This document shows, piece by piece, positions 1 through 52,413 of a DNA stretch of 64,000 nt. Position 1 is the first letter of the stretch; every line of letters begins with the position of its first letter. The stretch lies in the NCBI GenBank assembly GCA_905178155.1, contig CAJINV010000010.1, forward strand, positions 1,992,778-2,056,777, in the 5' to 3' direction. The position numbers and the translations under genes are program-made. This DNA comes from Amoebophrya sp. A120 (lineage: Eukaryota > Protista > Dinoflagellata). The notes beneath the pieces were generated by a model that had not been told where the DNA came from, ran no database searches, and worked only from the letters and a program-made list of their open reading frames with translations.

Positions 1-3000
1 GAGTCTCCATGCGAAAGCCCGCCTCCCTATCGCGGCGTGCTGCATGATTGTGATCATTTGCAAAAGGCCGCGGGCGGGCTCTAATATTCTAGACGAGAAA
101 AATCCGCAGCCAAGTTCCCCGCAAATTCTGCACGGGTTCGGCAACCCGGACCCTAGGACCCCCGCTTTCGGAGTAACGTCCAGATTTTCCTCGTCCCCAC
201 GACTGGACAACCGTGGCAAGCTGGCGGCGGAAACAAAGGACCCCTCCCCTTTGGACCGGAGCTTGCGACCTGCATCTTCCTCCTGATCTCCTTCTACAGA
301 ACTCGTGGTTATTTTCGAAGACGTGGTGGCCGCGGCGGCGGCGGGTGCGCTAGTTCTACTAGTTGCAGTAGCAATTCTACCATTACCATTGCTAGTACAA
401 AAACACAGCTCCAAATGCCTCGACCACAGAACGCTGGCGAGGAATTCAAAATTCACATCCCGGTTCTCGTCAATCATCTCATCGTCTACTTCCGCTGATC
501 TTCTTGTCGTTCCGCCATTTGAAATCAGCGGATTTGTCATGTCGCCCTCCAAGTAGACAAACACGTTCGAAGTGACCGGGCTTTCCACGCAAGGCAGATG
601 CAAACTCAATGCGTTCTTCTTGATCCTGTGCCGCCTCGGGAGGGTATGACAGTGCACAACTCCGCCTCCCCCTCATTTATGTTGTGTGAACAGCAACACA
701 AGCGCTGGCAAAGATAAAGCTTTTGCATGACCAATTCCGTACAGGATTGTAGTGCTGTTTTGGATCATTGCGGAATCTGTCATGCAAACGGTACTAACTG
801 GCAAAGGGTGGATTTGGAATTTTGCATGACAAACGAGGGGAAGGGGCGGCTGTGCACTTTCATAGAGAGTAGTTCTCCTTCTCGCTCGCGCAGTGTTTCC
901 TGTAGTTCCTCTGCTCTTCAGCGCAGGAGAAGTTTTTGGCGACAGTGGCATGATGATCCCAGGTGAGTTATTGTAGTAGTAGGCTTGTTCCGACGACCAC
1001 GACGTCCATGTACCAATTCCACCTCCCGCAACTGCGCGCATGCTCCGCCTCCCCGCCTGGAGCGCCATGCCGAGACTGTCGAGTTGCAGTCCATCAGAAC
1101 TGCTTGCAGCTGTGGACGGCAAGCTCGTATTGCTACTTTGCGATGCATTTTTGCGCGTCGAACTCGCGGCCATCAAATTTGCACTTTGCACCTTGAGCAC
1201 GGAGAGAAATTCTCGGAAGTAAGTCAACTCCCGGTCCGTCGGGGTGTTCGAAGGCATATTAGCAGTATTGTTTGCTGCGTTAGTCAACANNNNNNNNNNN
1301 NNNNNNNNNNNNNNNNNNNNNNNNNNNNNNNNNNNNNNNNNNNNNNNNNNNNNNNNNNNNNNNNNNNNNNNNNNNNNNNNNNNNNNNNNTTTTTCCTTGC
1401 GATGTTGCACCTGGTGCACTACCCCCGCCAGCAGTTCCCGAAGTTGTGGTATGCAGTGCAAATGCAAAAGCATCGTACTCGTATGAATGCATTACAAATT
1501 TCCTCAGCATGAGAAAGGAAATTTGCTATGCGGATTTGACTTAACAAGAAAATTTGTAATGCATGATTGCAATACGAGTACGATACTTTTGCACAGGATA
1601 TGTGGAGGACATCGAGTGTGCGTTCTGCTGCTCCAACAGCACGTGGAAATGTATCCGCAAAAAAAGACCCGTCGCCATCCAATTTGTCATGCAAAACACG
1701 CATCGAAAGCCACGTTTGTCATGCAAAAAATGGATAGGGATCATGATGGGTGTTTTTTCCTGGATAGAATGGAAAATGGACTCCGGCCAAAGGTTGAGCG
1801 CGTAGCAGTGCCGTGCCATTATGCATTGCAGAAGCATCGCACTAGTTCTAGTAAAAATTGCATTACAAATTTTTCGAGAATGAAAAGTGCAATTTGTAAT
1901 GCGGCTTCGGGTAAACTAGGCGCTTTGTCATGCAGTGTTGCAATTACTACTAGTACGATACTTTTGCAGTTGATAGCCATGGTGAAGTGACAATGATCCG
2001 CTGTGCGTGACCAGGAGGACATCAATTTCATGGCACTTGCAGAAGCTGGAACATAATTTCTGCTCCCATAGGCGGGGGCCCCGCTCTTATTGTTCTTCCT
2101 CGTGCTGTAGTTATCCCCAGCTTTATTTTTGTCCATGATCACCTGGTGGTGCAAAAAGTCCTCATTGTTCAACAAGGTGTCCAACTGATATCCGCTGGCT
2201 CCACTTGATGTCGTTGTACAGTGTCGCAGCACGAGCGAGTAGCAGCGCAGCGCCAGCTTTTTACAGGTCGCCCGCTGGAACGTGTGTCCGGCGAGGACTA
2301 GAAAAAACGCCTGCTTTCGTTTATGACTTGCTCAAACGTTCTTACAATCTCAAACGTTACAATAGAATTTGGATATCTGTGATGCATGATGAGCATGACA
2401 GACTCGCACAGCGTTTACACCTTTTGCAATACAAACTTCGCCAGATTGTCGTGGGGTTTAGGGCTCCGGATGAACTTGTCATGCGCAATCCCATGAGACT
2501 TGGCTAGATCATGCACTCCTGCATCACAGATTTCCGTATTCTATTGGAGCGTTTGAGATTGTAACACCTGAGCGGGTTATAGCGTTTCCACCCCGCTTTT
2601 CCGAACAGGCTGGCGGCCTGCATGGCGTTCCCAAATGTTACATTTGCAACTGTTACATGATTTGTCATGCAAAATGACCATGACCCCGACCCGCCAGACT
2701 ATCAAGCTGCTTCGCATGACAAATTCCCGGAGGGCTAAATAGCACTGTAATCCGCACCAAACCTGTAATGCAAGACGCGCAAGGGTCCCCCTCTCACCTG
2801 TCCTAGTCTTGCGTTACAAATTCATGTAACAGTTGAGAATGTAACGTTTGAGAACGCCATAGCCTGCTCCAGCAGCAGCCCAGTCTTCAAGCCCTCTTCG
2901 GCGGGCAAGAGGTCGGACGAGCACTTCACGACGAGCTTTGCGGTTTCAAGCAGGAGTTTCCCGGTCTGCGGAGACAGCAGCACACCACCTCCAGCGCTGG

Positions 3001-6000
3001 TAGATGAGGCTCCACCACCCACCTTCGTCGATAATTCAGCTACCTCGAGCACGTACTGCGATTCACAGACCTTCATCAGGTAAAACAGGACCCGGATCGC
3101 CAAATTTACCTTGCCCGCTTTTGAGTAAAAGTCTAAGGCGTTGCGCAAGGACTTTTCCCAGTTCTCCACGTCGTTTGACAGCAGCTGGCAAAGCCCCTGC
3201 ATCTCGTAGCAGCCCGCAACGTGCTTCCAATTGCGATCTTGCTTGAAATCCGCCAGGAGGAGCTTGTAGTAATTGTTCGCGGTTTCGTAGTCGCGCAGGT
3301 GGAAGCACAGGTCCCCGGCCAGCCGCATCTGGCCCTCGGTCGTGTTTAAATTGTAGGTGGCAATCGCCGTCTTCCCATAAGAACTTTGTGAAGCTGCGTT
3401 GCTACTATTCGTTGCTCCTCCTGAAGATGTTGTCCCAGCATTGCTCACACTGCCGGTCGTGATGTATCCCCCACCACTTCCCGTTGTATTCATTTCGGCG
3501 GCAGATCCTCGAACGGCATTCAATACGTCGTCATCGCCTCCAAATGATCCCGTGGTCCCCGCTCCGAGTCTACCACTGCCACCATAGTTAGCAGAATTTC
3601 TGTAGTCCCCCGCCACCGAGCTCTGTTCCTTGGGTTTACGGAATAGGGATTTCATCGTGTTTTGAAACCCTCTCTATGAACTGCAAAAATGTCTGGGTCT
3701 GGAAGAGTCGGGGCTTGTCATGCACATTTTGCATGACCCGTCAGGTCTGTGATGCTGGTGCTATCGTCACAGATTTTTTGAGAGCTTCTTGATGCTAATT
3801 ACGCATTAGAAATGCCCTCTCTGCGTGCAAAGAACTGACTCCTCTTGCTGCTCATGCAACACAGACATTTTTAGACTCCGCAGACAGCATTACAAGTTCC
3901 ACTCTTGCAGGCCCAGACATGTTTGCGATCGATACTCTCCGCGTGCTGCCGATTTGGGCGTCCAGCATGGACTATGGATTGCAAAAATGTCTGGGTCTGG
4001 AAGATTGCAACTTGTGATGCTGTTTTCGGAGGCCAAAAAGATCTGTATTGCATGACCAGCAACAGGACTCCAGTTTGTGTTACGCGGAGAGGGCATTTCT
4101 CATGCGGAATAGGCATTAGGAGGCCCTCTAAAAATCTGTGTTGCTAGATCATGCATTACAGGCATCAGGCGTCATACAAAATATGCATGACAAGTCTGGA
4201 TTTTTCCAGACCCAGACATTTTTACATTTGATATGGCCAGTTTTCGCTCCACCCACGGAATGGCGAGCTGCTGCACGAAATTCTTTACCACCTGCTGCAG
4301 CTCGTTGCAATCCGCTATGGTCAGGCTCGCGAGGAATGATGTGGACGAGGAGCTCTGGTGCGACGTTTGGCTCCCATCAACTACACTGGTCGTGGTCACT
4401 GCTCGTCCCCCTGGAGGAGGACCTCCTCCTGGAGTACCTGTAGTTCCCGACGCGGCCGGCGATAATTTCTTCCGAGGTCCTGACGCCTGGTGGATGCCCA
4501 CCTTTTCGAAAAACTTAGCCACACCAAAGTTTTCATCCACCATTGATGAAGATGATGTAGAACTGGTGGTGGAGGCAGTAGAAGACACTCCCGCACTGTT
4601 TAACAGCGAGTTTTTCCGGTTTAGACGGAGTGCATATGGCAGTGCACAACTCCCCCTCCCCCTCATTTGTGATGCAAAACTCCAAATCCAGGTGCTGCCT
4701 TGTGGCACTGTTTGCATGACAGATTCCGAAAGCCCACATAGTACTACATTCCTGTGGCTGTGCAAATTTGTCATGCAAAACCAGTACTCTTGCTGACGCT
4801 TGTATTGCGGTTCATGGTTTACAAATGAGGGGGACGAGGGGGAGTTGTGCACTCTCATAGGACAGCAACCGACGACGGGTTGAAAACGGATTTCATCTGG
4901 TTCTGATATCCTGGGCAAAAGCACTTCTGGTAGAAATCGTTTCATTTCGAATTGCAATCTTGCAAGACAAACCCATGTTGTCTACTTTTTACCTGCCAAA
5001 ATTTGACGCCCCCCTCTCTGTAGTGCTAGTGTTCCTGCCTGAAAATAAAATTGAAATTTATCAAGCATTGAACTTGCTAAATGTACACAGCCCGAGATGT
5101 TGACTTTTGCAACGCATATCAGAACCTGCTCCACGATTTCCATTTTCGGGGACTCTGGGTCGCTCATATGAACTGCAAAAGTATCGCATTCGTATGAATG
5201 CATTACAAATTTCTTCAGCATGAGAAATAAAATTTGTAATGCGAATTTACCTCAAGAAAAAGATTTGTAATGCATGATTTTTGCAATTATACGAGCACGA
5301 TACTTTTGCACAGGATAGCTCATATCGTGCAGCAAAATTTTCAACCGTGGCGGGTTGGCCTCCAACACGCCCTTATGCATTGCAAAAGCATCGTACTAGT
5401 ATAAATTGCATCACAAATTTTGGCAAGAAGAAAAGTGGAATTTGTAATGCTGTTTTACCTTAGGAAGGAGATTTCTCATGCATGTTTGCAATTAGTACGA
5501 CTACGATACTTTTGCACAGGATAGCCCTTCCGGCAGAGCAGCGGGTTGGTGTTCAGGTGCAAAATCTGCTGGAACGTATGGAAGCGTCAGGATTGAAATC
5601 GTCAAAGTTGAAACAAATACTTTGTGATGCATAAAATGCAACCCGCAAAGCGCCTGTCTTGCAGAGTAGGCAAGGGAGGCATATTGCAAGCCTGTTGAAA
5701 GGTAGAAATAGAGCTGCTAAAGTAGCATGACAAAAGGCGTCTTCCTTACACAAACAGCATTACAAACTGGAAGGATTGAGGCACCACCAAAACTTGTCAT
5801 GCGCCTTTTGAAAACTGGGCTCCAACTGGCATCCATTTTATGCATGACAAACTATTTCAACTCTGACGATTTCAAACCTGACACATCCATAGAACGTCGC
5901 AATTACGTCGGGCTCTTTGCTGGACACGCAAAAAAACGTGCCGAACGGCTGGTGGACGCACTCGTGTTCCTGGTACCGGTACTGTTTTTTCAGCACCAGG

Positions 6001-7894
6001 CTGCGGTAGCTTTCCCACCAGGGCTGGGAAAAAAGGTGAGGTGGAGGTGCCGGCGCGGTTCGTGTTGCCACAACTGTAGAAGGACTACTTCTGGAGCTGG
6101 ACGAGGAAGAAGATTTCGTAGTTCTTTGTGGTATATCAAATGTAAAAATGTCTGGGTCTGGAAGAATGCATGTTTGTCATGCTTGTCTGGCATGACTCTT
6201 AAATCTGTCATGCAAGTTACCCAAGAGCTCCACCTTTCTGTGATGCAGAAACGCGTTTTGTCATGCAGAATAGGCAACACCTAGAAGCTCAGAACCTTGT
6301 GATGCTGAGCCAGCATTTCTGGCCTCATCATGAGACGCCACCCAGCATCACAAGTTTCCAGACCCAGACATTTTTACATTTGATATGGTACTACTCCTTG
6401 CGACTGCATCTGCTCCAGCGATATCAACTGTAAAAATGTCTGGGTCTGGAAGAGTGTTAAACTTGTCATGCAGGTTTTCCATGACCCATGAGGTCTAGAA
6501 TGCGGGACCTAGCATGACAGAGTCTGCGAGTTGTCCGCTATGCCTATCCTGCATGAGAAACTCCCTCCCAACTTGGTCGAAAGTGGACAGCTTTTGGCCC
6601 TCATGCAACACAGATTTTCGCATTATTCGGATTCAGCATGACAAGCTGCAATCTTCCAGACCCAGACACTTTTGCAATCCATAAGCGACCCCGAGTGCAG
6701 GAGCTGCTGGTCGTGGCCGCAGTTGTAGTCGTACAGCGCATATCCTGTGCAAAAGTATCGTACTCGTACTAATGCCAATCTTGCATGACAAACCTGCCTT
6801 TTTGCCTGAATTAGCATTACAAATTCCATTCTTCTTTCTGATAAAATTTGTAATGCAATTTATACTAGTTCTTAACTTTTGCAATGCATAGCGCACAACT
6901 CTTCTCCATCTCCGAAAGCGTTTCTTCGCGGAAGGGTGTCCGCGTAGCCTCGTCCACGGCTTGGTGCGCGAGGGCGGGAAGTATCGCGAGGAAAAAAAGC
7001 TGCCTCAGTCTCAATTTGTAATGCGGAAACCTCTTCATGTCATGCAAGAAATGCATCGCGTGCTACTTAGTCTGACGCATCGCAGGTTTTTTATGTGTCA
7101 ACATGCTGGCCGAATTTGCGTTGCTGATGAATGATCTGCAAAAGTTTTGAGACTCCTGAGACAGCTTTTTATCCTCGATACAGAGGTCGTTCCGGTTAGC
7201 GTCGACGTCCGCATGGTCCAGGAAAGACACCCGGAACTGTGAGTTTTGAAACACGTTTTCCGTGCAAAAGTATCGCACTCGTATACGTATTATGCAGTCA
7301 TGCACATGCATTACAACTCTTACTCTTTTTCTTAAGGTACATCCGCATTACAAATTCCATTTCTCACGCTGAGGAAATTTGTAATGCATTCATACGAATA
7401 CGATACTTTTGCAATTCATAACACGCCCCTTTCGGCGATGGAGTAAGAAACTGGGATGTTCGCCACGTAGCCCCCAAAGGGCGAAAAAAGCTCGGCGAGC
7501 GTGAGGCCGTTGGTTCTGGAAACGGTTTCCGTCGCAGTTTATGCATCGCAAATATGTCTGGCTCTGGAAGGATGCGAACTTGTGATGCTCATTTCACAAA
7601 ACAGACAAATCTCTCACGCAGAGGCAGCAAAAGATGCCCATTTCATGTCACCAAAATGAGAGATTTGTCATGCGGATACTTAGGCAATGCGAAAGATTAA
7701 GATTCTCGAAATCTGTGATGCTAGCGCTTCCAAGACAGACCTTGTGTCATGCAAAAACACCATGACATACGACGCACTCTTCCAGACCCAGACATATTTG
7801 CATTTGATACAGTTTCCGTTCCGACCACCAACACTTCGGGAACCAGAATCTCTGTATGGATCCAATCCGGAAAAGAAGCTGGCGAGCTTAGCAT
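1..7894 (-). CDS. TRAPPC8: TRAPP III subunit TRAPPC8/Trs85 (multi-exon, 3' end probably beyond window start, spans N gap)
   Basis: Manually spliced exons give TRAPPC8-like segments: VVGTETATETVSRTNGLTLAELFSPF; PWWESYRSLVLK..HECVHQPFGTFFCVSS; LTIADCNELQQVVKNFVQQLAIPWVERKLAMLDAQIGSTRRGFQNTMKSLF; EGQMRLAGDLCFHLRDYETANNYYKLLLADFKQD. 19 TIR introns. Start ATG at 7894 is a best guess. Confidence 0.85.
645..864. mobile_element. TIR introner family D
   Basis: TATGACAGTGCACAAC...GTGCACTTTCATA; DR GAGGG/GAGAG. Confidence 0.8.
1290..1389. other. Assembly gap (100 N)
   Basis: Run of N. Confidence 1.
1450..1600. mobile_element. TIR introner family B
   Basis: DR TGTGG. Confidence 0.9.
1652..1766. mobile_element. 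TIR introner family I
   Basis: DR AAATG/GAATG. Confidence 0.8.
1820..1975. mobile_element. TIR introner family B
   Basis: DR GCCAT. Confidence 0.9.
2322..2581. mobile_element. TIR introner family E
   Basis: TATGACTTGCTCAAACG...GAGCGGGTTATA; DR TCGTT/GCGTT. Confidence 0.85.
2621..2861. mobile_element. TIR introner family F
   Basis: CATGGCGTTCCCAAATGTTAC...GTTTGAGAACGCCATA; DR GCCTG. Confidence 0.9.
3675..3934. mobile_element. TIR introner family A
   Basis: DR CTCTC; frame restored. Confidence 0.9.
3973..4233. mobile_element. TIR introner family A (opposite orientation to 3675)
   Basis: DR TGGAC/TGGCC; frame restored. Confidence 0.9.
4635..4859. mobile_element. TIR introner family D
   Basis: DR GTGCA/GGACA (degenerate). 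Confidence 0.8.
4907..5118. mobile_element. Degenerate TIR introner, family B-like
   Basis: TATCCTGGGCAAAAG...CTTTTGCAACGCATA; DR TCTGA/TCAGA. Confidence 0.7.
5167..5317. mobile_element. TIR introner family B
   Basis: DR GCTCA. Confidence 0.9.
5374..5523. mobile_element. TIR introner family B
   Basis: DR GCCCT. Confidence 0.9.
5577..5891. mobile_element. TIR introner family J
   Basis: DR GAACG. Confidence 0.9.
6134..6385. mobile_element. TIR introner family A
   Basis: DR TGGTA; near-identical to 22704-22955. Confidence 0.92.
6422..6683. mobile_element. TIR introner family A
   Basis: DR AGCGA. Confidence 0.9.
6741..6890. mobile_element. TIR introner family B
   Basis: DR GCGCA. Confidence 0.9.
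6982..7180. mobile_element. TIR introner, singleton family
   Basis: TATCGCGAGGAAAAAAAGCTG...CAGCTTTTTATCCTCGATA; DR decayed. Confidence 0.7.
7256..7420. mobile_element. TIR introner family B (left terminus mutated)
   Basis: DR ACACG. Confidence 0.85.
7540..7809. mobile_element. TIR introner family A
   Basis: DR CAGTT; removal gives GTETATETVSRTNGLTLAELF. Confidence 0.92.
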
Positions 7895-9510
7895 GGAGGC
7901 TGATACCCCTGCAGGTGCGGCCGCACTCCCCGCAGAAGAGGTGGGTGTGTGTATGGCGGAGAATTGAAAATTATATGCGTCCTCGACTAGTTCTAGTGCT
8001 CGCCAAATGATTTCATGCATTAACTTTAGCTCTATTTCTATCCCGCGTCCACCACTTTCATCATACGTTATGTTCTAGAAACACCAATTAGCTACAAATC
8101 TTTGTTTGGAAAGCGGCGTACGACAAGGGTCTAACTCACTTGGGTGCCACGTGCCGACTCTTCCAATATTCATGCGATAGAAACGAACTCCAACGCAGGT
8201 TCAGCAGAAATCAAATTTGAATTCCGCTTGAGGTTCAACATCTCAGTCAACATTTATCTTCCCCATGTTGTATGTATTCGAAGAGTTCTTGTAGTGGATG
8301 GCAAGTACGTAGAAGTGCACAAAAATGTATGCAAAGCGAAGAAGAGGAGGACACTGTAGGTCTTGCTCGAGCTGATACTGGACGCTGCAGTGGTGCTCGG
8401 AGTTGTAATGGGGGCAGCCGCACGACCAACCGGACCTCCGGACGAGGACCTCCCGAAGCCGCTCATTTTCTCTTCCTTTTGCCACTATCTCCACATGCAA
8501 GTCCGTGCCTAAAGCCTATCCATGTGATTGTCGTGAACTACAATACATGCATAAGAATTAGATTTACAATTAAATGAGTACGCATTAATTCGCGGGCAAA
8601 TTAGCAATGGCTAGCCGTAGTGAGAACAGGCCTCCGCGATATTACGTGTTGGTTTCAAATGTACAGAATCTCAATACGCGTTCGATTACGGGAGAACAGC
8701 AACAGAAGCACTTTGAAAGCCGGAATGACAGACAAAAAATTGATCCTGGTAAAACCGAATGCCCGAGAACGATCAGCACTTATCGATCTATATCTATACA
8801 AGATCAACAACCCTCACAAAAATACAAGATCAAGAAAGCAACACAAAAATAAATGAGCCGCCACACCCACGTTGTGGTGGGTGCTGCGCGTTATCTTAGA
8901 TATCAAGGAAGAACCGCAAAGAAAACTCCCTCGCTAGTACAGCTGAAGTCTGCATTTGCAACGTGAAATATATTTTCAGGTATCATCTTCCACAACATCC
9001 ATCGGGACCGGTCAACAAGAAATAAATTTTATTTTGGCGAATACAAGCATTCTCGAACTTTTTAAAGCTACGTGGTGGTGCATCATGAAGCGTTGCGTCT
9101 TTCTTTTTGTTGTTTGTTGGGACTAAAGCAGGAACAGAATTTCATTCAAATCACAATAAGCCAACATCAAATGACAGTCGCCCGTGCAGTGGGCTTGCGC
9201 AAAAAAAAAATCATTGTGGGCCCAAAGAGGACGAACAAGTAGGCAGTACACGTGGCGCAAAAGAGAACGCAACGCGAACACTCAAATTCAAAATAAGTAT
9301 TATAAAATAAAGATATATATAGATCTGCTACTGCTACTTGCAAGTATTATATCGTACTTGCACCCTTCTGGGATGTTGCTTTGTAAAATCCCAGAGAACA
9401 AAAGCGGAAGTGTCTTCAAAAGTGTAGCGTAGCTGAAACCACTTTTGGTATTGTAGCACTTTTGAAGGCTCTGTGTGAAACATCTCCTCATTGTCAAGTC
9501 GGGACGCACT

Positions 9511-10608: not shown

Positions 10609-10623
10609 CTCTTCATTGTGATG
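10561..10623. repeat. 3 x 21-bp tandem repeat
   Basis: TTCAACTCTTCA(T/A)..GTGAT repeated three times; encodes heptads on minus strand. Confidence 0.85.
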
Positions 10624-16673: not shown

Positions 16674-18406
16674 CTACTTGCCACCCTGCACTTGTTTTCG
16701 TTCCCTCGCGGCGCCAGCCCCGCTGCCGCCTTGACCTTCCCGCACGGCTTTCACGTCTTGCTCGTCCATTTGCGGCATGTATCAAGTGCAAATATGTCTG
16801 GGTCTGGAAACCGAAAGTTGTAATGCCAAATGTGAAGAATGATAGACGCACTGCAATGCGCAGCTATGCATGACAAAGTTCTTGGCTGCCATGTCTTACG
16901 TATTCCGCATGGCAAACTGCGTTTCTGCATGACAGGTAAGAGCGCCTTTTCGTGCCTACGCAACACAGATTCTCGAGTCATGCCAGACAGGCATGACAAA
17001 CTTGCATTCTTTCAGACCCAGACATTTTTGCAATTAATAGCATGAGTTTGGGCATCAGGTAGACAAACCCGAACATGAAAGCCATCATGAGCACCATGGG
17101 CGATTTATGCATTGCAAAAGTATCGCACTCGTATAAATTGCATTACAAATTTCCTCAGCATGAGATGAAATGAAATTTGGAATGCGGATTTAGCTTCAGC
17201 AAAAAATTTGCAATGCATGATTGCAATTACTACGAGTACGATACTTTTGCACAGGATACGATTTGAAAAGCGACAAGATATTGAAGTCCTCCCGTTCCTC
17301 AAAATACATCTTCACGTTGGAGGGCGCGAGCTCGAGGGGGTACCTGAAGCCGGGACGTATCATTAAGAGTTGCCAACTATAATGCGTACAACAGGCACGA
17401 GCTTTCATGCTTACTTCGGTGGTGCGCTGTGCAATGTCACCACTCATTTTTAAGTTGCTTTTCGAGTCATCAAACAAAACAGAGCTTTTCGAGTCATCAA
17501 ACAAAACATTTCAATACTTCAATTTCTTCCCTTTCCCATACAGCGCATCCGACAGGTAGGGTGTGATTTTCGGCATACTATCCGACTCCGCGTCCGATAC
17601 GTGTCCCACGTCGATCAAAACGGGGTCGAACCACAAAATTGGGTGGACAATGTCAAGACTGTAATTCGGCTCTCCGGTCAACACGTCCGTGATTTCGAAT
17701 TCACCCTTGGCTGTCGGGTGCACTATCCGCGTGTCCACATTGTTTGAGAGAATCAGCTTGGTGCTGGACAGGGCCTGGTGAGCGGTTTTTTGCTTTTTCA
17801 TGCAGAAATTTTGACATGATGATAAACGTCATTGCTTGTGATGCTGTGATGCCGCGTCATTGCTTGTCATGCTGTGATGATGTGGACAGAGTTTCACAAG
17901 AAGGCGCAGGCTTCGTAGCGCCTTGTGCTTTCACGCTCATTCTCTCTCAAGAAGCAAGATCTCTGTACAACCTCAACCACCTGTAGCTGCAGCAGCAAAT
18001 AAGTAAAAAATACGTCCTTCGTGAGTCGGAAATGCGGGGGTATTTTGATCACGCCCTGAATACTGGTGGTCGCTGGTTCCGGTGGTAGAGAAGCCGAGGA
18101 GGCGAAGCAGTCGAGACCGAGGTAAGAGGTGCTTACTGTCGCTGCGACAACGGCTCTCGTGAAGGCACGCGTTACTCCTGTCGTTAAAGACGTGGAGGTG
18201 CGGGGGGACTTATGTTGTCCGGACATTGCCCGGAAATTGTTTGTATTCCTCCTCCGCGGCGGCACACTCCGTCCGGTCCTCTTGCTCGTCCTACTAATTG
18301 TTCCGGTCATCTTCGAGGACGAACTATCTTCTGGTGAGAAGCTGCAGCTGGAGCTGCTGCTCTCTGTCGCCAAGACAATGCTGGTGTCGCGCATCGAAAA
18401 TGCCAT
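16674..18406 (-). CDS. EMC7: ER membrane protein complex subunit 7 (DUF2012)
   Basis: TAKGEFEITDV..NYSLDIVHPILWFDPVLIDV and YFEEREDFNILSLFKSPMVLMMAFMFGFVYLMPKLM resemble the EMC7 beta domain and TM; 2 intact TIR introns, 1 GT-AG intron, 1 degenerate intron (~17786-18012). Confidence 0.8.
16780..17039. mobile_element. TIR introner family A
   Basis: DR GCATG. Confidence 0.9.
17106..17258. mobile_element. TIR introner family B
   Basis: DR CGATT. Confidence 0.9.
17344..17517 (-). other. Canonical GT-AG intron in EMC7 containing a 2 x 27-bp tandem repeat
   Basis: AA|GTATTG...TTCAG|GTAC joins to LKYPLE. Confidence 0.75.
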
Positions 18407-32418: not shown

Positions 32419-35400
32419 CTAGAAATACATTCGCTTTTCATGATCTTGCTCTTCTTTCGTGACGTTGCAGTAGTTCCAATTGGAAATATCTACTGACCCA
32501 CCTCCCTGAACCTGGCCCACGTAGAAAACCTTCCCCTTCGCCATTGCCGCTAGGGGAACTGCGACTTCCAAGTTCGAAAGATTCGCTATTTGCTCCATAT
32601 CATCTTGGACTTGGCTTTCTTCCGCAGCAGCTGTGTCGACGACGACGTCCCCACCGACCAGCAAAATAACGTCCGGCCGGTACGCCGCATTTTCGTAGAT
32701 GGCTTTCGCGCACTTGGCGAAGTCAACCAAGCTCATTTTCGAGTACACCACACCACTCAACGGGTCGCCAGCAGCGGCGAGGAGCTCTAGCTATCGCAAG
32801 AAGAAACTGTTTCACTGTGTCTGTGAACTTGTGATGCATAGAATGGAACACAGAATTACTTGTCTTGCTACACCTGCAAGGCATTGGATTTTTAAGCGTG
32901 TATTCCCTTGGAAAGCGCGCATGGCAAATTTTCTGCGTCATGTGTAGCAAACTTGTGATGCGGATCTTGCAAAACCATCACAGTGAAACAGTTTTTTCGT
33001 GGGATACTAGCGGTTGAGCTTCCACTCCTTCTTCGTTTTCATCATCTCGTTCCGCGGTTCTGAAATCGTAATCGACGAATTTCTGCTCCTCCTGAAATGT
33101 TTTCTTCAGAAAAGATGTCATGGGAGAAGTTTTGTTCTTGTTCATTTTTCCTGTCGGAGCTGCAGCCTTCTTCGGTCTTGAAGTAGAATCAAAATTTTCC
33201 AAATCGACATCAATTTCGCCACCCGCAGCAGAAATTTCGTTCTGCAATTCCCCAATCTCCTGTAACAATCTCGGAGCTTCTGTTTCGTACCTCCGTTCCA
33301 GCAAACACTGCACGAAGCAGAATTTCTGCTCCGCGGAGCGGAAGTCAACCAGGGAGCGGAGATGGTATCTGTATTCGTCTTTCACCGATTGCGGAATCTG
33401 TGTCGTGATGTGTGGGTGGTACGTGATGTGTTGAAATTTTGTGCTCGTCACTTGTGATGTACCACCAGTTTCTTGGCGGGTAGCGGAGGCGGCTCCTGCA
33501 CAGCGGTCGTCGAGGTTCTTGTTCCGCTGCGAAAAAAATGGAAGAAAGACGGCTTCGCTGTCAACGAGAAACCTGTGCAGCGATTGGAGCTTTTCGACAC
33601 CAAGAGGAGCTTGACATGCTCGTCGACGCATCAACAATGCTTGTTTTGAGAAGAATGATCCACCCCCAGGAGAATTTTTCTTAACCCCGAAAGACCCTTC
33701 TGCGTCGCGCTGCTCCTCCGCGTGACGACCTCGTGCCCAAGAAGAACAGCCGCGTGTTGATGCAGAAGAAGATGTTCCGGTTCCGCCCACTACCTTCAAG
33801 CTTTCCCACAATTCCCGGTCGTGTAGCTCCTTCAGTTTGGTAACCAAGCTGTCGAAATCCGTGCTTTTCGCCAACTTTTCCCGACACCTGTCCCACTCTT
33901 CCTGCTCTGGTAGCCAGTTGGCCAAACACTTTGTGAGGTAGGCAGAGTTCTTCTTCTCTTCATCGTCCACGTCCTCACTACATGAGGTTGAGCGATTCTT
34001 GTTGCTACGATCTTCACGACACGCATGATCTTCATCACTTTCATTTCTCTTCATGTTCAAACCCGGAAAGCTGCTTCTCAGCACTCGCTGAGGGCAATAC
34101 CGCAAAAACGCTTCAGCATCGAATTCGCCAGTTACCAGGGCACGAAATTGAACCAGTTTTTGTCGAAGTTGTGTGAGTCTGACGTTGGTGGCGTTCGTCT
34201 TTGAGGTAGATGATGTTGTGCGGGGTCGTCGTGTTTTCTTTACACCTGGACCTGCTGAAAAGTAGTTGTGATCTGGCTCCAGAGCCTCAACCTGCTTCTC
34301 CGGTAGAGAAAAAACGCTGTGTCCCTCTGCGTACAGGATCAGAAATTTTCGGACAGAAGAGATGGCAGCCGGACTGGCGATGGCGGATTCGCCATCGCCT
34401 GCGGTCGGTGATGCTGCTGAAGTCTCGTGTTTCAGCACTTTGCGAATCAGGACCTCCGGTCCTTTCAGGCGGTCGGAATTTTCAAAAGCAATCCGCGGAA
34501 GTCGAAACTTGTGGCCCGCTCGATCAACATCGCGTACTACTCCGCCGCAAGCCGTCTCCAGAAAGGAGGAACAACTGAACTCTGATTTACTGGAAGATAT
34601 TGGAGCAGCAGCTCTTCCTGTCGTTCCTGCAGTATTGGTCGTGGTTTCTTTGGTAGCCGCTGCTCTCTCCGCAATCTCTTGGTCAAGCAGGTAAGCTTTC
34701 AAAAAATCGGCGAGGCCACGGAACTATCCTGCTGGAAAGAGTTATCATCTCCTCGGAATGCCAGATTATTTTTTCGCACGCCTCAGCACGGCTAAGCTTC
34801 TCTTCCTCGTGCATTCTTTTTCTTTGTGCGGAGTCGGTCACAACCACAAGCATGATCGTCATGCAGCTCTTAACATGCAAAGGATGAAGATCACAACTTG
34901 ATGACTCACGTGCTTAAACTAGGCAAGGAGATGCACTACAACATCCTCCGCAGGATAGATTCATCTCTCGCTCCAGCTCCGAAAATCCGGTGGAATCGAG
35001 TCGGATGGGAAAATTAGTCCCAGCGGTGTCCTCTGAAGATGAATTCTCAACATTATCAACAGAGCCGCTCTTCCTTCCGCTTGTTTTTGGAGGTGCGAAC
35101 ACTCGATTTTGGTTCTGCGAGGAAGAGGAGAAGCCACTATTTTGTTCCGCCGTCATCAGAGCCTGCACTGTCTGCTCCCACGTGGCCAAACAAGATCTTG
35201 TTGCGTGGCGAAACTGACCTGCATCCTGGTCCCAACAACCGGCTCCGGCTGCCGCGCTCGACGGCAGCACTTGTGCGATGACAAACACGCGCGAAGAGGA
35301 CGAGGAAGTTTGTTCTGCAGCACAAGAGTCGGGATTTTGTACCTGGTCCCCGCGGTGGTTCCAGTCAAACGTATGGGTCGTACTATCCCCACCAGACGGG

Positions 35401-43870: not shown

Positions 43871-44225
43871 AGTACCGCAATAGCCTCGCCGTGCCGGGAT
43901 TCAACACTATACACAAAAGAGGAATTATGGCGGCCGCGCACTTGAACAAACCAGCAATCACCTCTGCCAACTATCAACACCTGCGCTCTTGGCAGTGGTG
44001 ATCCTTCTTTCTGAAATTAATAGACGTTAATAGGTAGCTGCTTCGTCATGTTTCGTTTGCGTCTACTCTAGTGTCATCCTTAGCGTGCTTCATCATCAGT
44101 TTTCTAGCCTCAAATGGTACAACACTGGGGTCTGTTTCATCTTCATCAATTACTAGTACTTTTACTTCATCTGATATTGTCACTGAAGAAGCTCCTTGAC
44201 GCCATCATGTGTAGTCAACAGATCT

Positions 44226-47200
44226 TCACTTCGCGCCACCATTTTTCTTCTTGGAAGACTTGGTCGACGAGGTATTATCAGACCCAGCACCCTTCTTCGT
44301 CTCACCGTCCGCCCCTGGCCCTGCAGCCCCGTTGGCTTTCTTCTTCCCAGCATCTTCGCGTCCCTCTTCACCGTTTTTCATCTTGCTCGTCCCATCATAC
44401 CCGGCTCCTCCATTCGCCGCTTTCTTCCCGTTCTTCCCCCCGGCGCCACTACCACTGGCGCTTGTTTTCTGGGACGACGCAGCACTATCCCCCACAGCCT
44501 TCGCGGTCTTTGCCCCAGCAGAACCGGTGGACGACGTACTGGCACTGCCAGGCACCCCAGCGGTGGAGGCTTGGAACATTTGAAGTTCTTCTGCAGAAAA
44601 CGACGCTAACAGCTCCTCTTCCGGGTTACTATCCTGCTCGTTTTGCTGCTTGTTACCCTTTTTCGTTTTGATGCTCGTGGTCCCTGAAGAGGCTGAAGAT
44701 GCACCAGCACTTCCTGCGGACCGCTTATTTCCGTCGCCATTAGCTGCGCCAGTTTCTCCTGCTGTTGCTCCCGCCTTCCCATCGGAGTCGGACGTTGATG
44801 CGCTACTGCCGCCGTTGCGGTTCATTTTACCTTCGCTCTTTCTGTTGTTTTTCGACGTACCGTTATCTTTCTTCTTGGAACTATTACCAGCACCTCCTGC
44901 AGCTGCCCCTGAATTGTCACTGCTGGCGTCGACGCTCCCGTGGTTTTTATTCGAATTCCCTTGTTGGTTCTTGTTTTTCGAGGACGAAGAACCTTTATTT
45001 TTCTTACCCCGTTTATTGTTGTTCGGAAGATTCTTGTCGTCTAGGCTCCTCTTGCTGCCTCCGGTCGTCTCAGCAGCTTGCTCTTCCCGCAATTTCCGCA
45101 AAACGTCACTAACGTCCTCCTCTTCCACCACCTCGCCAAGCCTCCTCGCCTCGTTCTCAGCCTCTAACTGCGCCATTAGCGCTTCGCTTCGCTTCTATGC
45201 AATACAAATTTCCCGCACATGTACAAGATGCATCACAAAGTTCAAGCCCAATTCAGAGTGTCATGCTAAAGTAGGATCGAAACCCAAATTTGTCATGCGG
45301 AGCCCGCATTTGTACGTCGTGTACAGGAAATTTCCTGTGGATAGCTTCCTGCGTGCTGCGATGGACTCCTTCTCGGACTCGGGGGTACTTCTTGAAGAGC
45401 GCTTAGGGTCGTTTGGAGTTTCACTTTCATCTGCATTCTTTGCAGCACCACGAAGACCATCATCTTCGCCGGACGCCGTGTCGACATCTTTGTCACGATC
45501 CTGAGAACGACTACGTTTGTTCTTGTCTGCGGAAGATGCTCTTGAAGTAGATTTTGCAGATTTTCCTTTCACAACCTCCTCACCACTGTCGTTTGCGCCG
45601 TCAGCCTGTTCTTCCACCTCCTCGTCGAGATTGTCAGTTTCGGTCTTCACCTGCTTCCGATCTTTCTTCCCGCGTCGGCGCTTGGAAGATTTTGATTTTC
45701 TTGTACTTGTTTTAGCGTGGAGGCCCCCTTCATCAGCTGCAATAGGTGGAGTCGTGCTGTCTGTTGTCTCGTCTTCGGATTCCTCTGATTTATTGTCCTT
45801 CATCTTGTCCTCTTTGATGTCCCGCGTAATTCTATTACCACCAGCTTCGGCCTCTTCATGTTCTTCGGTTGATGTGCCAGGAGCTTCAGCATCCGCTTCC
45901 GCTTTGATACTTTCGTCTTCTAAAACAGTATCGTCCTGTAGTTCGCCATCCAAGTTGTAATCCGCCCCTTCCTTCTGAATCTCGCCAAACACCTATAACA
46001 GTGCACAACTCCCCCTCCCCCTGATTTGTATAGCATGGGCGGCAATCGTACAAGCATCAGCAAGAATGCCGGTTTTGCATGACAAATTTGCACTGGAGTA
46101 GAGTGCTATTTGGGCTACCAAAACTTGTCATGCAAACAGTGCTAAGAACCAAGGCGTAAATCTTTAGGCACTTTGCATGATAAATGAGGGGGAGGGGGAG
46201 TTGTGCATTTTCATAACAGCTCCACTTCCTTCTCCTCCTTCTTCTTTTTTACAAATTCCTGCTCTTTCTCCTGAACGGTCTTCACGTTGCTGACAAATTT
46301 GTCGTATTTGGTGTAAAGCGTTGGCACCGCTTATCAACTGTAAAAATGTCTGGGAGGTCTGGAAGATTGTCATGCAGGTTTTCTATGACTCATGAGGTCT
46401 GGAATGCAGCGCCTAGCATGACAAACTCTGTGGGACCTCTAGCATGCCTATCCTGCATGAGAAAATCCCTCTCAACTTGGTAAAAAACGACGGCTGTTGG
46501 TAATCACGCAACACAGATTTCTTGCATGATTCAGCTTTAGCATGACAAGATCCATCCTCCCCGACCCAGACATTTTTGCATTTGATACTGCTTCCTCGGT
46601 TTCCTTCAGCATGCCCTCGTTGTAGTAGACCGCGAGCATCAAATTGTCGTACAAATCTTGATTCTCCGTCAATAGCGCCGCGTCATTGATCAGTTTGAGC
46701 AATTGCACCTGCAGAATGATCTCCGCCTCCCGGACCTTCGCGGTTGGGCGCTTCGCGACGTAGTCCGACGCGAATTTCATGCGGATTTTCTTGATATGCA
46801 AGAATGCAAACGCATCGTACTAGTAAAAATCGCATGACAAATTTGCTGAGCATGAGAAATGAAATTTGCCTTGTGGATTTGGCTTGAGAAGTAAATTTGT
46901 ATTGCATGACTGCGATTAGTACGAGCACGATACTTTTGCAATGCATATTTGTTCGTGGTCAACAGCTCCTCCAGCTTCGGCTGCACCAGTTTCGCCGCTT
47001 TATCAAATGTAAAAATGTCTGGGTCTGGAATGTGATGCTGAATTTGGATTCCAAAAAAATCTGTATTGCATAAGCAGTAAATAAGGGAGTGTAATTTTTG
47101 CTACGCGGAGAGGGCATTTGTCATGCGGAATAGGCATCGCGAGGCCCTCAGAAAATCTGTGATGCTAGGGCATGCATCACAGACGTCATGGGTCATGCAA

Positions 47201-50200
47201 AACGTGCATGACAAGCCTGGCAATCTTTATCTTCCAGACCCAGACACTTTTACATTTGATACGCTTCCAGGATGATCGACCCCTCCAATTTCGGGTCCGA
47301 ATTCGCCAACGACAAAGTCGGGTCAAAAGCGGCAAACTGGGCTAAGGACTGCGCGAGCGAGTTGGAGTTCTTGAAAGCCTGTTGTTTCAACAAATGCCGA
47401 AACTCGGCATTGTCAGATGAACTATTTTCAACATTTTTGTCCTTCTTCTTGATATTGCCACCTGCAATTTTATTCGCGGTGCTGGTCGTCGTCATCTTCT
47501 TCATCTTCTTCGAAACAGGTACAAAAAGACTCGCAATGAACTGGTTGAAAATTTTCTTCATCTTCTTCGGGTACAGCATGAACCGTAGGCACGCGCTCAT
47601 CGTTTTGAATATCACGGGAAAAAGTGTTGGCGTTAACGGAATAACTTGTGATGCAGTAATGCACCACAAAACGTGCCCAAATTTATCATGCATAGCATGC
47701 ATGCTAAGCAAAATTTGTGATGCATATTTGCAATCTATGAAAACCGTTAACGTTAACACTTTTTTGTTTGGTATTGAAACTCGTAGATTCATCGTCCTGG
47801 TTGACCAACGAGCTGTATGAACTTCAAATAAAGCAGCGCACTAGTATAAATAGCATCACAAATTCCCTCCGCATTAAAAATGGGATCTGTAATGCTGTTT
47901 TACCTTAGGAAGATGATTTGTCATGCATGCTTGCAATTAGTACGAGTGCAATGCTTTTGCAGTTCATAAGCTGTAGAGCGGCTCAGGATCATTTTGTTGA
48001 GGATTTGGATTTTGCAAATGTGGTGGTCTAGACGACGACGACGAAATATGTTGAGCAGCACCACTACCTCGATTGTAGTTGTTATCGTTGTTGTAATTAT
48101 TCAGCTTCGAATTCTTTTCCTGTTCCGCTTCCGCCCGGCTGCTGCGGATCGCTTGCGCGAGCGCTGCGGTGTAGAAGGCCCGAATATCGTGGTCACGGTA
48201 GCCATGGAAGTCCCGGTAGCTGCTGAGAGGGGGATTCGCCACGTGCTTGGTGTTGAACGTTTCTAAGGAGCCCGTCAAGTGGAAGCCCCAGGTTTTCGTC
48301 TGCTGGTTGTAATTGCAGGTTTCTTCGAGGAAAAACTTGTAAAAGGTGTTGTAGAAGTCCTGGTTTTGCTGGATAAACTGCGTCGCGTCCTCAAGATGTT
48401 GTTGTTCTATCCCACGAAAAAAGTGTTACAGTTACACATTTGTAGTGAAATCAGCAACGCAAATTTCTCTGCATGAGTGAGAAAACTTGTAATGCAGAAA
48501 TCCTACGGGAAAACACCTATGAAACGAGGCTTGTATGCATATCCGGCATGACAGAGCTTGTCTGTCTTGCTTGGCCTGCAACAGCACCATGTGTAACTGT
48601 CACACTTTTTTCTTGCGATATCTTCAGCAGTGTTTTTATTTGCCCCACTCAGGCTGTTCTTTTCACTGGAGGTTGTGTCGTTCGAAGACGTTGTGCCGTT
48701 CGAGGTCACCGTTCTACTTGCGCCGTCCGGGCCCCCGCTGGACGAATCGTCTCCAGCAACATCCTGAATACCTTCGACGGCATCCGCTCCTTCACTGGAT
48801 GTCTTGTTCAAGAACGACGAATCATCGTCAGAAGTGCTATTCTTCACCGACCCACTTCCATCTTCACGACCCGACACGGCTCTACCACTTGCACCACGCA
48901 ACATTTTTGAGTACAGATAATCCTCTGTGGGAATGAAGTTTACCGTGCTCATGTTGTTCGGCAAGGGCAGCTGCACGAACATCCGGTGCTTCTTGGTGAA
49001 CCACACCCCGTAAAAGCACAAAGCACTCGCGTCGGTCAAGTCCGGGGCGTGGGTGAAGATTTCTTCCCCCGTCTGCAGCGTGGTGTGCACATTCGGGTAG
49101 TGGTAGTTGTGGTTCATCCGGCTGTAAAGTGGGGATGACGCGTACGTGTTCTGGGTGATTTTGGAGCCGACTACGAGGCTGTAGTAGCCCTTGTTGTTGT
49201 CATCGGACGTCGACATAATTTTCGTGACCGCGACATTCCCCTGTAAATTCGGGCGGATGAAAATGGTCGCCGGGAGGAAAACGCGCTTTTTCTTCTTCGG
49301 TTTATTATTCACCGCTCGGAAAAACTTTTTCTGGTACAAATTTAGCTCCTGTCGGTCGATTTTTGTCGCGGGCTTTTTATTTCCACCTAAACTCGTGGTT
49401 GTCGTGACGGTATCAGAAGTCGAAGAAGTAGTTGCGTCTTTGCTGTCTCCCGCCGTAGATGACGAAGTAGAATCTTTCTCCTTTTCCTTGTTTTTCTTGT
49501 CCTTTTTCTTCTTCTTATCCTTCTTTTTCTTCGATTTCTTATCCTTGGATTTGTTTTTGGACGATTTCTTATCTGTGGAAGAGCTGCTGCTGTCTTCGTC
49601 TTTATTGTCTTTCTTGCCGCTTGCGGTTTCAGTTGTTACACCGCCGGCTGCAGTTCCACCGGCGCCGGTGGTGCTGTCATGCCCGTCAGGCCCTTCTGTC
49701 ATGGTTTCATCGTTATGTTCAAGTGGCTTTGGCGGTCGGTAGTAGATTTTCTGCAACCCTTGCAAGAAGTCGTAGTCGTCCGAGCCGTCATCTAGTTCCA
49801 CCACCTCGACAGAGTGTGCTTTCCACAGCAGATACGCCCAGCGAATATGGTCCATCGTCAAGTTTCGGTACTCGTCAAACAAATGCAATCCACCAAGCAC
49901 TATGCATTGCAAACGTGTCGCACTGCTACTGGTAAGCACCAATTGCAATTGCACAAGTGCATGACAAATCCCTTTTATTCCAAGCTCAAGCAGCATGACA
50001 AATTACATAACATTTGTCTTGCTGACCTAATTTGTATTGCAGTTTTTTACCACCACCAGTACGCTAGTACTTTTGCAATTCATAAGCACCTCGTCCGTTA
50101 CCCGCAAGGCCTCGTTTTGCCAGTTCTCCATGCTGGTGCCCTTCGCAATGATTTTAAACTCCTCCCGGTCGATCGCGAAAATGCCCCGGGTCCGGTGCCA

Positions 50201-52413
50201 ATCGAGCTTTGGCAGGATGGGAAGCAGAGTGTCCCGCATCTTTTCGGCGTACTGGCTGTAGTCGTGCTTGGCTGGACCCTGTTGTTCGGAAGATTTTTCC
50301 TCAACCTGATCCGTGGACGACGACGACGAAGATCCGTCTGCGGCGGTGCTGGTTGAGTCCAGTTTTTTGCTGGTGCTCTCGAGTATCCTGACTAAAAACG
50401 TCCCCACACGACCAGAGTCCAGATGGGAAAACTGCTAGACAAACCAGCAAGCTTTGGTTGTTTCGCTAGACAAGTCAGCTTGATGTCCTCGTAGCGTCAA
50501 CCTGTTCTTTAGCTAGTTCAGCAGCATCACAGATCTAGCTTATGATGCTGATTCTAGCATCACCAATCCCACAAAGCGGCTAGAAAATGCTTCTTATGGG
50601 GCTCCGCATGAGAAACTTTTTTGGGATGCAGATTTGCACGACAGCCATGGGGTAGGGACGTAGTTTTTACTCAGAATATCGGTTTGACGATTATGTTGCG
50701 CCACCGCATTCGGCGCCCAAAACGTGGCGGCCAACTGCGCAATCGCCGCGTGTTCGTCGGAGTTTATAACCCGCTCAGGTGTTAGAATCTCAAACGTTAC
50801 AATAGAATATGGAAATCTGTGATGCAAGAGTGCATGATGCAGCAAACTCTCATAGGATTGCGCATGACAAGTTCCGCAGCCCCAAGAAACCCCACTACAA
50901 TCTGGCGAAATTTGTATTGCAAAAGGTGGAACGCTGTGCGAGTCTGTCATGCTCATCATGCAACACAAATTCCAGATTCTATTGTAACGTTTGAGGTTGT
51001 AACATTTGAGCAAGTCATAGAGTTGAATTTGAAATTCTGGAAAAACGAATCGTCTCCGTTTTGCTCCCCGGAAATGGCGAACTCCGCGGGGATATCAAGA
51101 GGAAAGATCCCCCCTCCCCATATCAAAACGAAACTTCTGATGCTGGATCTGTGTACACAAATCCGCGCTGTCTTGCTGGAGAGCACTGCAGGCCCGCGCC
51201 AAGTGTGAGCAGAGAGGTTTTGGCCTAGGCGCTTAGCTTGAAAAACATCCACGCTTTAGGCCCCGCAGCATGACAAACCGCCTGCATAATGCGGCGGAGC
51301 CTGCAAAGTTGCCTTCTTGCAAGACAGACTCGATCTGTGACCACAAACCAGCATCACAAATTTTCAAAAATATACCGTTTGAGTATGGGGAGGGGGGATT
51401 TTTCCTTTTGATATGGGACCTCCAGTAGCGATCCAATCACCGTGCCGTTTTTCACCCCGAGCCCGAAGTTTCCGTTTTCAAAATCCAAAACTGTCACATC
51501 ATAGTTGAACTGCTTTAAAACTTCCAGTCGCGCTTCCTGCTCTTTCTCGTACTCGCTGACCGGCACAGCCGAGCCCCACCAGGAAGAAGAACTAGTTGAT
51601 GCCGCGGCCGCTTTTTTACTCGCTTCGTCGTCTACTTCGGCGGCATTTCCCTTTCTCCCCGCGGAAGAGGAGGTGACTTGTACCAAATTCAACCGCTTTT
51701 TCATCTCTTCTCGCCGTGAAGCAGATGATACTGCAGTTGTGCCAGCATCTGGTCCTAATTTTGCATTATCACCAATGTTCTTGCTGTCCTGCTCTAGAAA
51801 TTTGATTAGCTCCGGGTGTGTTTTCATTGGGTCGGGGAACCGCACGAGTTGGTTTTTCAAAGACTCTTTCCACACCTTCCCGGCCATCAAACCCCGCGCC
51901 GAAAGCGTATGAAAGCCTCAGAATGCAAATCCTCAACGTGGAAATAATTTGTGATGCATGAAATGCGACGCAAAAAAGACTGTATTGCAGAGGATGCAAT
52001 GAAAGCCGACTATTGTCGTCCTACGGGTTAAGAATTGGAGTGCTGATTAGCACGAGAGAAGTGCACCCCTTTGCCTAACTACTAGCATGACAGACACGTT
52101 TTGAGTGCCCGGGAAATTTGTCATGCGCCGACTACAAATGGCGCTTCAACTGAAGTCGTTTTTTTGCATTACAAATTATTTCCACTTTGAGGATTTCCAA
52201 ACTGAGGCTTTCATACAGCGCTTCCTCCGCGGAGGCTGCGTCTCCTCCAGAGGACGAGGAGCCGCTTGCCCCACTCCTGCCGCCGCCGTAGCTGGACGAA
52301 GTCGACCCGCCGCCGGGGGAGTAAAAGAGGGCCGTGTCGTGATCCATCGACACATAGAAGAGGACCACGAGGGAGGCGAGAAACCCCCAGATTACCTGCA
52401 TCAAGGTGATCAT
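44226..52413 (-). CDS. Large hypothetical protein with N-terminal TM anchor and K/E/S-rich tail, 14 exons
   Basis: VIWGFLASLVVLFYVSM at N-terminus; successive minus-strand ORFs separated by 13 TIR elements; not every junction frame-checked. Confidence 0.6.
45196..45343. mobile_element. TIR introner family L
   Basis: DR GCTTC; frame restored. Confidence 0.88.
45994..46215. mobile_element. TIR introner family D
   Basis: DR ACACC/ACAGC. Confidence 0.85.
46332..46587. mobile_element. TIR introner family A
   Basis: DR CCGCT/CTGCT. Confidence 0.85.
46795..46947. mobile_element. TIR introner family B
   Basis: DR CTTGA/TTTGT. Confidence 0.8.
47001..47261. mobile_element. TIR introner family A
   Basis: DR CGCTT. 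Confidence 0.9.
47610..47773. mobile_element. TIR introner, singleton family
   Basis: AAAAAGTGTTGGCGTTAACGG / CCGTTAACGTTAACACTTTTT inverted; DR TTGAA. Confidence 0.85.
47816..47968. mobile_element. TIR introner family B
   Basis: DR AGCTG. Confidence 0.88.
48408..48620. mobile_element. TIR introner family H-like
   Basis: DR TGTTC/TCTTC. Confidence 0.82.
49901..50084. mobile_element. TIR introner family B-like
   Basis: DR AGCAC. Confidence 0.85.
50384..50678. mobile_element. TIR introner family G
   Basis: DR TCGAG/TCGGT. Confidence 0.8.
50765..51019. mobile_element. TIR introner family E (opposite orientation to 2322)
   Basis: DR GAGTT. Confidence 0.9.
51093..51413. mobile_element. TIR introner family C
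   Basis: DR GGGGA/TGGGA. Confidence 0.88.
51908..52215. mobile_element. TIR introner family J
   Basis: TATGAAAGCCTCAG...CTGAGGCTTTCATA; DR AAGCG/CAGCG. Confidence 0.88.

Follow-up and report, generated by a model that had tools for sequence, protein, structure and literature searches.

In a 64,000-nucleotide (nt) stretch of Amoebophrya sp. A120 DNA (contig CAJINV010000010.1; here called the window), transposon-like elements known as introners act as introns in either orientation. The window contains 68 of them, 115-324 nt long, which resemble miniature inverted-repeat transposable elements (MITEs); nearly all have the ends TAT…ATA and are flanked by a 5-nt target duplication. Copies are inserted both ways, removal of an element plus 5 nt restores the reading frame of the host gene, the elements are absent from transcript-like contigs, and the target sequence is neutral. 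At a few sites the position of the cut is also seen, and there the intron, read along the transcript, takes in 1 nt ahead of the element and 4 nt past it.

The terminal inverted repeats (TIRs) of the window elements consist of TAT, 7 variable nt and an A-run, although the A-run is missing from at least three families. TIRs, a target duplication, a lack of coding capacity and insertion in either orientation are the features of MITEs, or non-autonomous TIR transposons. A search for inverted ends bordered by repeats found 58 of the window copies, similarity to those added nine, and one was found by eye. For a wider set, a metagenome collection was scanned with the end motif of one family, and loci L001-L075 were merged into 380 kilobases (kb) from one other assembly; 94 short loci (L076-L169) were left out. 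The merged loci contain 294 automatically detected elements, with flanking repeats that are perfect in 215, carry one mismatch in 63 and carry two in 16, detection having required near-identity. Of the loci elements, 197 have complete flanks and an assigned strand, and together with 60 window copies of assigned strand they make 257; five of these (one with a doubtful strand, four with wrong boundaries) were dropped, leaving a pooled set of 252 in which one doubtful nested call is retained.

The initial annotation had named five sets of same-family copies facing opposite ways. All five are real, and their starts, TAT…ATA ends and 5-nt flanking repeats are confirmed. Global identity is higher in reverse than in forward alignment for E (2322/50765, 0.88 vs 0.63), A (3675/3973, 0.78 vs 0.63), C (51093/62075, 0.81 vs 0.62; 51093/19969, 0.73 vs 0.62), H (32792/59851, 0.83 vs 0.59; 32792/61247, 0.82 vs 0.61) and the weakest pair, I (1652/61908, 0.77 vs 0.68). 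Orientation is well defined, since the identity of an element to its own reverse complement is only 0.51-0.66. Among 67 window elements, seven of 11 multi-copy families contain both orientations, with no inconsistent edges. When orientation is tabulated against host strand for the window and the merged loci, both orientations are present in 13 of the 14 families with at least three copies, and no family in this combined sample is significantly biased (lowest p 0.11). Close pairs (at least 88% identical) face the same way in 38 cases and opposite ways in 35. Within the pooled set, the two orientations do not differ in G at +1, in AG or in repeat mismatch.

The minus-strand location of the host genes, also claimed at the outset, agrees with both the frames and the introns. 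Removal of each element plus 5 nt yields minus-strand frames of 848 codons (15 elements), 639 (11), 633 (seven), 1732 (13) and 683 (six), and plus-strand frames over an element reach at most 271 codons. In addition, transcript-like contigs skip two CT..AC introns, which therefore lie on the minus strand. An automatic strand rule left seven of 67 window elements uncalled; its sole plus call, at 59118, is judged doubtful and is excluded from the counts. Retention of the elements is not tolerable for the genes: in the window it would shift the frame in 43 of 68 cases and bring stops in all three frames in 54 of 68. Homologs of the TRAPPC8 and photolyase genes align through most junctions, whichever way the element faces. 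After removal of 11 elements, the model of the (6-4) photolyase/cryptochrome is identical to the annotated A120 protein P0006 across all 620 residues, with exon 21698-22270 matching it at 100%. Intron borders in the A120 gene models are reported to come from transcript alignments (PMC7789003). Thus, this identity, which includes the removal of four minority-orientation elements, is indirect RNA evidence, and it is stronger support for removal in the minority orientation than the contigs provide.

Two sets of contigs, X1 and X2, were compared with window positions 1400-21399. Among the 15 joints listed, contigs skip five elements, each by exactly the element plus 5 nt, and two GT-AG introns; the other eight joints resemble cross-matches between copies. 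The five skipped elements are all in the majority orientation. For the minority orientation the evidence is one-sided: the match of X2 record 7 to the genome ends at the edge of 3973-4233, with 154 letters remaining. Two runs of raw reads (X9 and X10) yielded only 11 and 30 matching reads and are uninformative. Taken with the families and with P0006, the five joints provide both marks of introners, namely removal from transcripts with non-canonical borders and repetition in the genome.

Along the transcript, the intron appears to read N+TAT…ATA+NNNN, beginning 1 nt ahead of the element and ending 4 nt past it (the 1/4 register, or register 4). Three junctions, representing both orientations, indicate that this register is transcript-polar regardless of which way the element faces. 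At 2322, X2 record 6 stops at 2317 and has 33 letters before it resumes at 2862; the last base of the downstream repeat is therefore exonic, and the register is at most 4. At 20527, both X1 and X2 retain the fourth base of the upstream repeat, giving a register of at least 4. At 23342, where the element is in the minority orientation, only register 4 of the six tried reproduces P0006: four upstream and one downstream repeat bases are kept, and two homologs, P0007 and P0009, have the residues DK at this place as well. Homolog residues elsewhere are in loose agreement, favouring a register of at least 3 at 4635 and 4907, at most 4 at 1652, and at least 1 at 46795. Most junctions are ambiguous in register because the two repeats are identical, and identical repeats would blur any mapping of splice position; the repeats differ in about a quarter of copies. 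In Table S4 of PMC7789003, all nine of the "predominant" non-canonical pairs of A120 have T as the second base. Matching direct repeats look dispensable: 30 copies differ at two or more of the five repeat bases, and 11 of the 13 that are callable favour removal of the element plus 5 nt. Repeat mismatches have no directional pattern, and exclusion of registers by stop codons was informative in two of 64 rows, both from one mis-bounded locus.

The transcript 3' end shows no preference for an AG, a branch point or a pyrimidine tract. At register 4, all 16 dinucleotides occur as the last two intron bases, with AG in 26 of 252 copies and GT-AG in 8 of 252; GT/GC-AG in any of six registers is found in 15 of 252, unlike the arrangement of canonical introners of the Polarella and Aureococcus type, which have a GT, GC or GA donor and an AG acceptor. 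The pyrimidine fraction near the 3' cut is 0.54, compared with 0.53 in predicted canonical introns. In the pooled data the base composition of the two ends differs at one of 57 positions, and positions 4-70 change equally in the 5' role (806/11407) and the 3' role (780/11206). The target duplication was considered as a supplier of G or AG and rejected; the mild excess of C at position 1 and of G at position 4 does not exceed that seen in flanking exon positions. There is also no target base preference and no pyrimidine-purine junction rule, positions 4 and 5 being near background.

The transcript 5' end, in contrast, looks like a donor. Of 252 copies, 2 carry a changed terminal TA at the 5' end and 13 at the 3' end (p=0.007); without the searched family the figures are 1 and 10 of 165. 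Private substitutions before curation number 2/426 vs 11/408 (p=0.011), and the interior mutation spectrum is near strand-symmetric. Both 5' TA exceptions read GC or GTG at register 4. The N-TAT start matches GTAT, the commonest donor among 94 canonical introns predicted by a gene finder that knows GT and AG only; GTA begins 49 of the 94 and GTAT 21, vs 6.1% of GT sites within those introns (p=2e-7). Both contig-supported canonical introns begin GTAT. The +1 base at register 4 is G in 77, A in 63, T in 59 and C in 53 copies. The earlier proposal that polar signals are unnecessary is supported in that no branch point, pyrimidine tract or AG is favoured, but it does not follow from the orientations, and the 1/4 cut and the 5' TA constraint are both polar. 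Two-way insertion does not exclude end signals, because the TIR offers the same first and last ~30 nt either way. Indeed, each orientation has its own donor-like N-TAT, although a conserved branch point was not found for either.

Structure prediction suggests that a TIR hairpin is available in either orientation. The two ends are predicted to pair in 97% of 256 copies, with no difference between orientations, and both E copies (2322 and 50765) are predicted to fold with a 1-nt 5' and a 4-nt 3' overhang (z values in the table). TIR positions 11-30 are changed less often (305/4363) than the interior (967/11260; p=0.001, searched family excluded). TIR positions 4-10 pair at all seven positions in only 26 of the 256. 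The idea that recognition is symmetric, the hairpin joining the two direct repeats, is supported to the extent that a hairpin would be available, but the repeats that it was to join need not match. As a separate observation, the same few 7-nt words recur at TIR positions 4-10 between families, the two ends of one copy often differ there, and the stretch is the fastest changing (~12%), which suggests end swapping or conversion between families.

The machine that we infer is a U2-type spliceosome without U1, for which the TIR would supply the donor and the TIR stem would set the 3' cut, a proposal whose chances we judge to be even. In A120, U2, U4, U5, U6 and most spliceosomal proteins are reported to be present, and U1 was not found (PMC7789003). 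The first TIR bases, UAU, would serve as donor positions +2 to +4 and leave the +1 base free, as expected if U1-based recognition of GU has been lost or replaced. The stem, or a protein bound to it, would hold the two ends together, and the 3' cut would be placed at a fixed distance from the stem, without AG. Because the element has like ends, both signals would be available whichever way it faces, and a MITE could insert anywhere in coding DNA at little cost. A bolder form of the proposal, toward which we lean slightly, is that the stem alone sets both cuts by a ruler (1 nt before, 4 nt after), that UA at +2/+3 is the sole sequence read, and that there is no acceptor sequence. Any TAT-ended transposon would then become a clean intron at any landing site and in either direction, and the machine would be either a spliceosome without U1 that uses a new stem-binding factor or a distinct set of enzymes.

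Several observations weigh against a spliceosome guided by the TIR and cutting in one register. X1 and X2 come from one sample and are RNA by guess. The register is fixed or tightly bounded at no more than three junctions; at 3973, homolog P0002 favours a register of at most 1, contrary to the contig, and among the 13 callable copies with diverged repeats one favours +4 and one +6. According to figure legends in PMC7789003, the position of the splice sites varies with respect to the hairpin (Fig. 3), with 1-5 nt given in Fig. S23. A branch motif is not enriched, being present at the 3' end of 84 of 256 copies and at the 5' end, read in reverse, of 88. For the donor, majority-orientation copies account for 11 of the 13 changed 3' ends, some of which may share descent, and the canonical prediction is noisy, recovering one of the two contig-supported introns. 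For the hairpin, the lower rate of change at TIR positions 11-30 is partly built into detection. Private changes that form G-U pairs do not significantly outnumber those that form A-C (88 vs 71, p=0.20), and RNA-level selection on the hairpin is unsupported; the pooled counts (340 vs 285, p=0.03) are not independent.

A non-spliceosomal, structure-guided activity (an endonuclease plus ligase, or a separate machine) could instead cut 1 nt before and 4 nt after the stem, as has been proposed for the nonconventional introns of euglenids. The long hairpins with their unequal overhangs in both orientations suit such an activity, as does the lack of preference for AG, G+1, branch point or pyrimidine, and an RNA enzyme can cut asymmetrically too. 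So do the missing U1 of A120 (PMC7789003) and the euglenid introns that have TIRs and repeats like target site duplications (TSDs) and leave as circles (PMC11282704). However, the 5' TA is changed less often than the bases it would pair with and matches the canonical donor, TIR positions 4-10 are often unpaired and change fastest, and the G-U bias is not clear; we regard this activity as unlikely, if a serious contender. Rather more doubtful is a spliceosome that ignores the hairpin, with the TIR carrying a linear donor on one strand and, on the other, a weak branch or U-rich signal from which the 3' cut is measured. In most families the A-run at TIR positions 11-14 is read as a stretch of U close to the 3' cut whichever way the element faces, and six long copies (457-1888 nt) keep both ends around unrelated, foreign interiors. 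Against this, the A-run is missing from at least three families, change at positions 4-70 is as frequent in the 5' role as in the 3' role, and branch-like motifs are not commoner at the 3' end.

The initial annotation had also allowed for removal on double-stranded DNA; the elements would then be excised before transcription, like ciliate internal eliminated sequences. The anatomy of TIR and target duplication and the random orientation would fit, but the elements are present in two DNA assemblies, the contigs without them are also without GT-AG introns, and the cut tracks the direction of the transcript; excision from DNA is therefore highly improbable. The retained repeat bases follow transcript direction and not a strand-symmetric pattern, and the 5' and 3' ends are unequally constrained along the transcript. 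Scarcely credible is an artefact of reverse transcriptase switching templates between the direct repeats at the foot of the hairpin. A hairpin with direct repeats is a classic substrate for template switching, but retention would wreck the genes through the frame shifts and stops counted above, conserved proteins align over the junctions, and copies in which three or four of the five repeat bases differ are still in frame at +5.

Neither the A120 elements nor introners that face both ways, as in Polarella, are new to the literature; the literature searches turned up no fixed 1/4 register and no AG-free acceptor. Like the window elements, the introners described in PMC7789003 have inverted repeats of TAT, 7 nt and an A-run, 5-nt direct repeats, non-canonical borders, a predicted hairpin and co-oriented gene blocks; membership is given by a 3-5-nt direct repeat at the exon borders, and the window repeat is 5 nt. 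The accessible part of that paper does not report element orientation, speaks of orientation with regard to gene order and calls the splice position variable, whereas the present analysis counts both orientations and proposes a single register. A120 introners are also treated in PMC12130899, with no orientation result in its accessible part. Among the papers found, excluding subscription papers and theses, none states two-way function, a fixed 1/4 register or an AG-free acceptor for A120.

Introners of Polarella glacialis and Aureococcus are likewise reported to be introns from non-autonomous DNA transposons with target duplications (10.1101/2020.10.14.339549; PMC9860276). Several Polarella classes make introns in either orientation (10.1101/2020.10.14.339549), as, by citation, do those of Aureococcus. 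These introners, however, depend on the element or the target for a donor that begins with G and for an AG, and they show an orientation bias (10.1101/2020.10.14.339549; PMC9860276), unlike the window elements, which have no preference for a target G or AG (see the GT-AG count above) and no significant family bias. Nonconventional introns of euglenids share a TIR stem that joins the ends, TSD-like repeats, and the lack of GT-AG and of a pyrimidine tract (PMC11282704). They are described as having a pyrimidine-purine junction rule and a stem that starts at +4 to +6, and as leaving as circles (PMC11282704), whereas in the window the stem starts at +2 and the junction bases are free. Fritillaria borealis also has MITE-derived non-GT/AG introns, which its U2-type spliceosome handles, with preferred border dinucleotides, a conserved U1 and a diverged U2AF (PMC11282704; PMC13326754). 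In the window, by contrast, the bases at the acceptor are random, and A120 is reported to have no U1 that could be found (PMC7789003).

A question since 2021 has been the means by which A120, with no detectable U1, removes tens of thousands of non-GT/AG introns. With a single transcript-polar register, the dinucleotide pairs that look scattered would follow one rule, NT...NN, which predicts that +2U and +3A are essential, that the last four bases are free, that the stem is required and that orientation is irrelevant. For A25, where the ends are TTA and the top pairs listed begin with TT, the rule likewise predicts a fixed register. If true, this would be an AG-independent 3' splice site at genome scale, and it would explain why these transposons fill coding DNA.

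Table. Introners, host genes and canonical introns of the window
Feature	Position	Strand	Evidence and remarks
Family E introner, TRAPPC8/Trs85 gene	2322..2581	-	Inferred intron 2318-2582; X2 record 6; hairpin z -7.3
Family E introner, opposite orientation	50765..51019	-	Inferred intron 50761-51020; in 1732-codon frame; hairpin z -9.2
Family A introner, majority orientation	3675..3934	-	X1 record 3 piece ends 3669; homologs gap-free over junction
Family A introner, minority orientation, same gene as 3675..3934	3973..4233	-	X2 record 7, one-sided; homology gap-free
Family C introner	19969..20290	-	Joint 19963>20291 in X1 and X2; GT..AG by chance at 1/4 register
Family C introner, opposite orientation	51093..51413	-	Reverse identity, frame
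Family C introner	62075..62398	-	Reverse identity, frame
Family H introner	32792..33006	-	Reverse identity, frame
Family H introner, opposite to 32792	59851..60065	-	Reverse identity, frame
Family H introner, opposite to 32792	61247..61461	-	Reverse identity, frame
Family I introner	1652..1766	-	Reverse identity, frame; register at most 4 favoured by one homolog
Family I introner, opposite orientation	61908..62025	-	Reverse identity, frame
Family A introner, one repeat mismatch	20527..20794	-	Joint 20521>20795 (both=1) in X1 and X2; register at least 4
150-nt-family introner, minority orientation, 3/5 repeat bases differ	23342..23505	-	Inferred intron 23338-23506; P0006
Host gene, (6-4) photolyase/cryptochrome	19860..24380	-	11 introners; minority orientation: 21428, 22704, 23342, 24057
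Host gene, TRAPPC8/Trs85-like	1390..8074	-	933-codon frame after element removal; extends past gap 1290-1389
Host gene, function not assigned	44229..52422	-	1732-codon frame, 13 introners; A25 relative P0001
Canonical GT-AG intron	17344..17517	-	Donor GTATTG; contig-supported
Canonical GT-AG intron	17775..18013	-	Donor GTATTT; contig-supported

Insertion or retention is strongly biased towards coding DNA: 67 of the 68 window copies are inside coding spans, which make up 31.6 of the 48.7 kb of non-element sequence. Three non-coding regions (8100-13400, 24400-28600 and 52500-54200) are free of elements. A 2358-codon minus-strand frame at 34917-42145 contains a single introner, a density far under that of neighbouring genes. 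An assembly gap of 100 N (1290-1389) lies inside the TRAPPC8-like gene, and the frames differ on either side of it.

Two copies may be changing towards canonical introns. A predicted minus-strand GT-AG intron at 55742-55896 contains a 150-nt-family element with a decayed transcript 3' end and an intact 5' end, possibly the conversion of an introner into a canonical intron. A reading of 55742-55883 as a hybrid intron, with a TIR donor and an AG acceptor, was rejected because a canonical GTATAG donor lies 13 nt upstream. At L009 (merged L009-L011, 9802-10125), the repeats are diverged and the upstream flank reads AAG|GT two bases before the TIR, a possible shift towards a canonical donor.

The six long copies, with intact ends and an unrelated interior of 0.2-1.6 kb, are L002 3143-5030, L024 505-1608 and L009 8473-9727, together with L070 3862-4492, L069 571-1051 and L037 5314-5770; their interiors are not repeated in the other loci. 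By eye, the six show low-complexity frames only and none that resembles a transposase. Rfam gave no matches within the window. A short motif, TTGTNATGC / GCATNACAA, occurs 136 times within the 58 first-annotated elements vs 25 times outside them in the window, several of the 25 falling in later-found elements or canonical introns; it is possibly a protein-binding site common to all families. Lastly, the element at 6134-6385 has a perfect 30-nt TIR, is 92% identical to 22704-22955 and has a 97% match in the loci of the other assembly; it belongs to a young subfamily.

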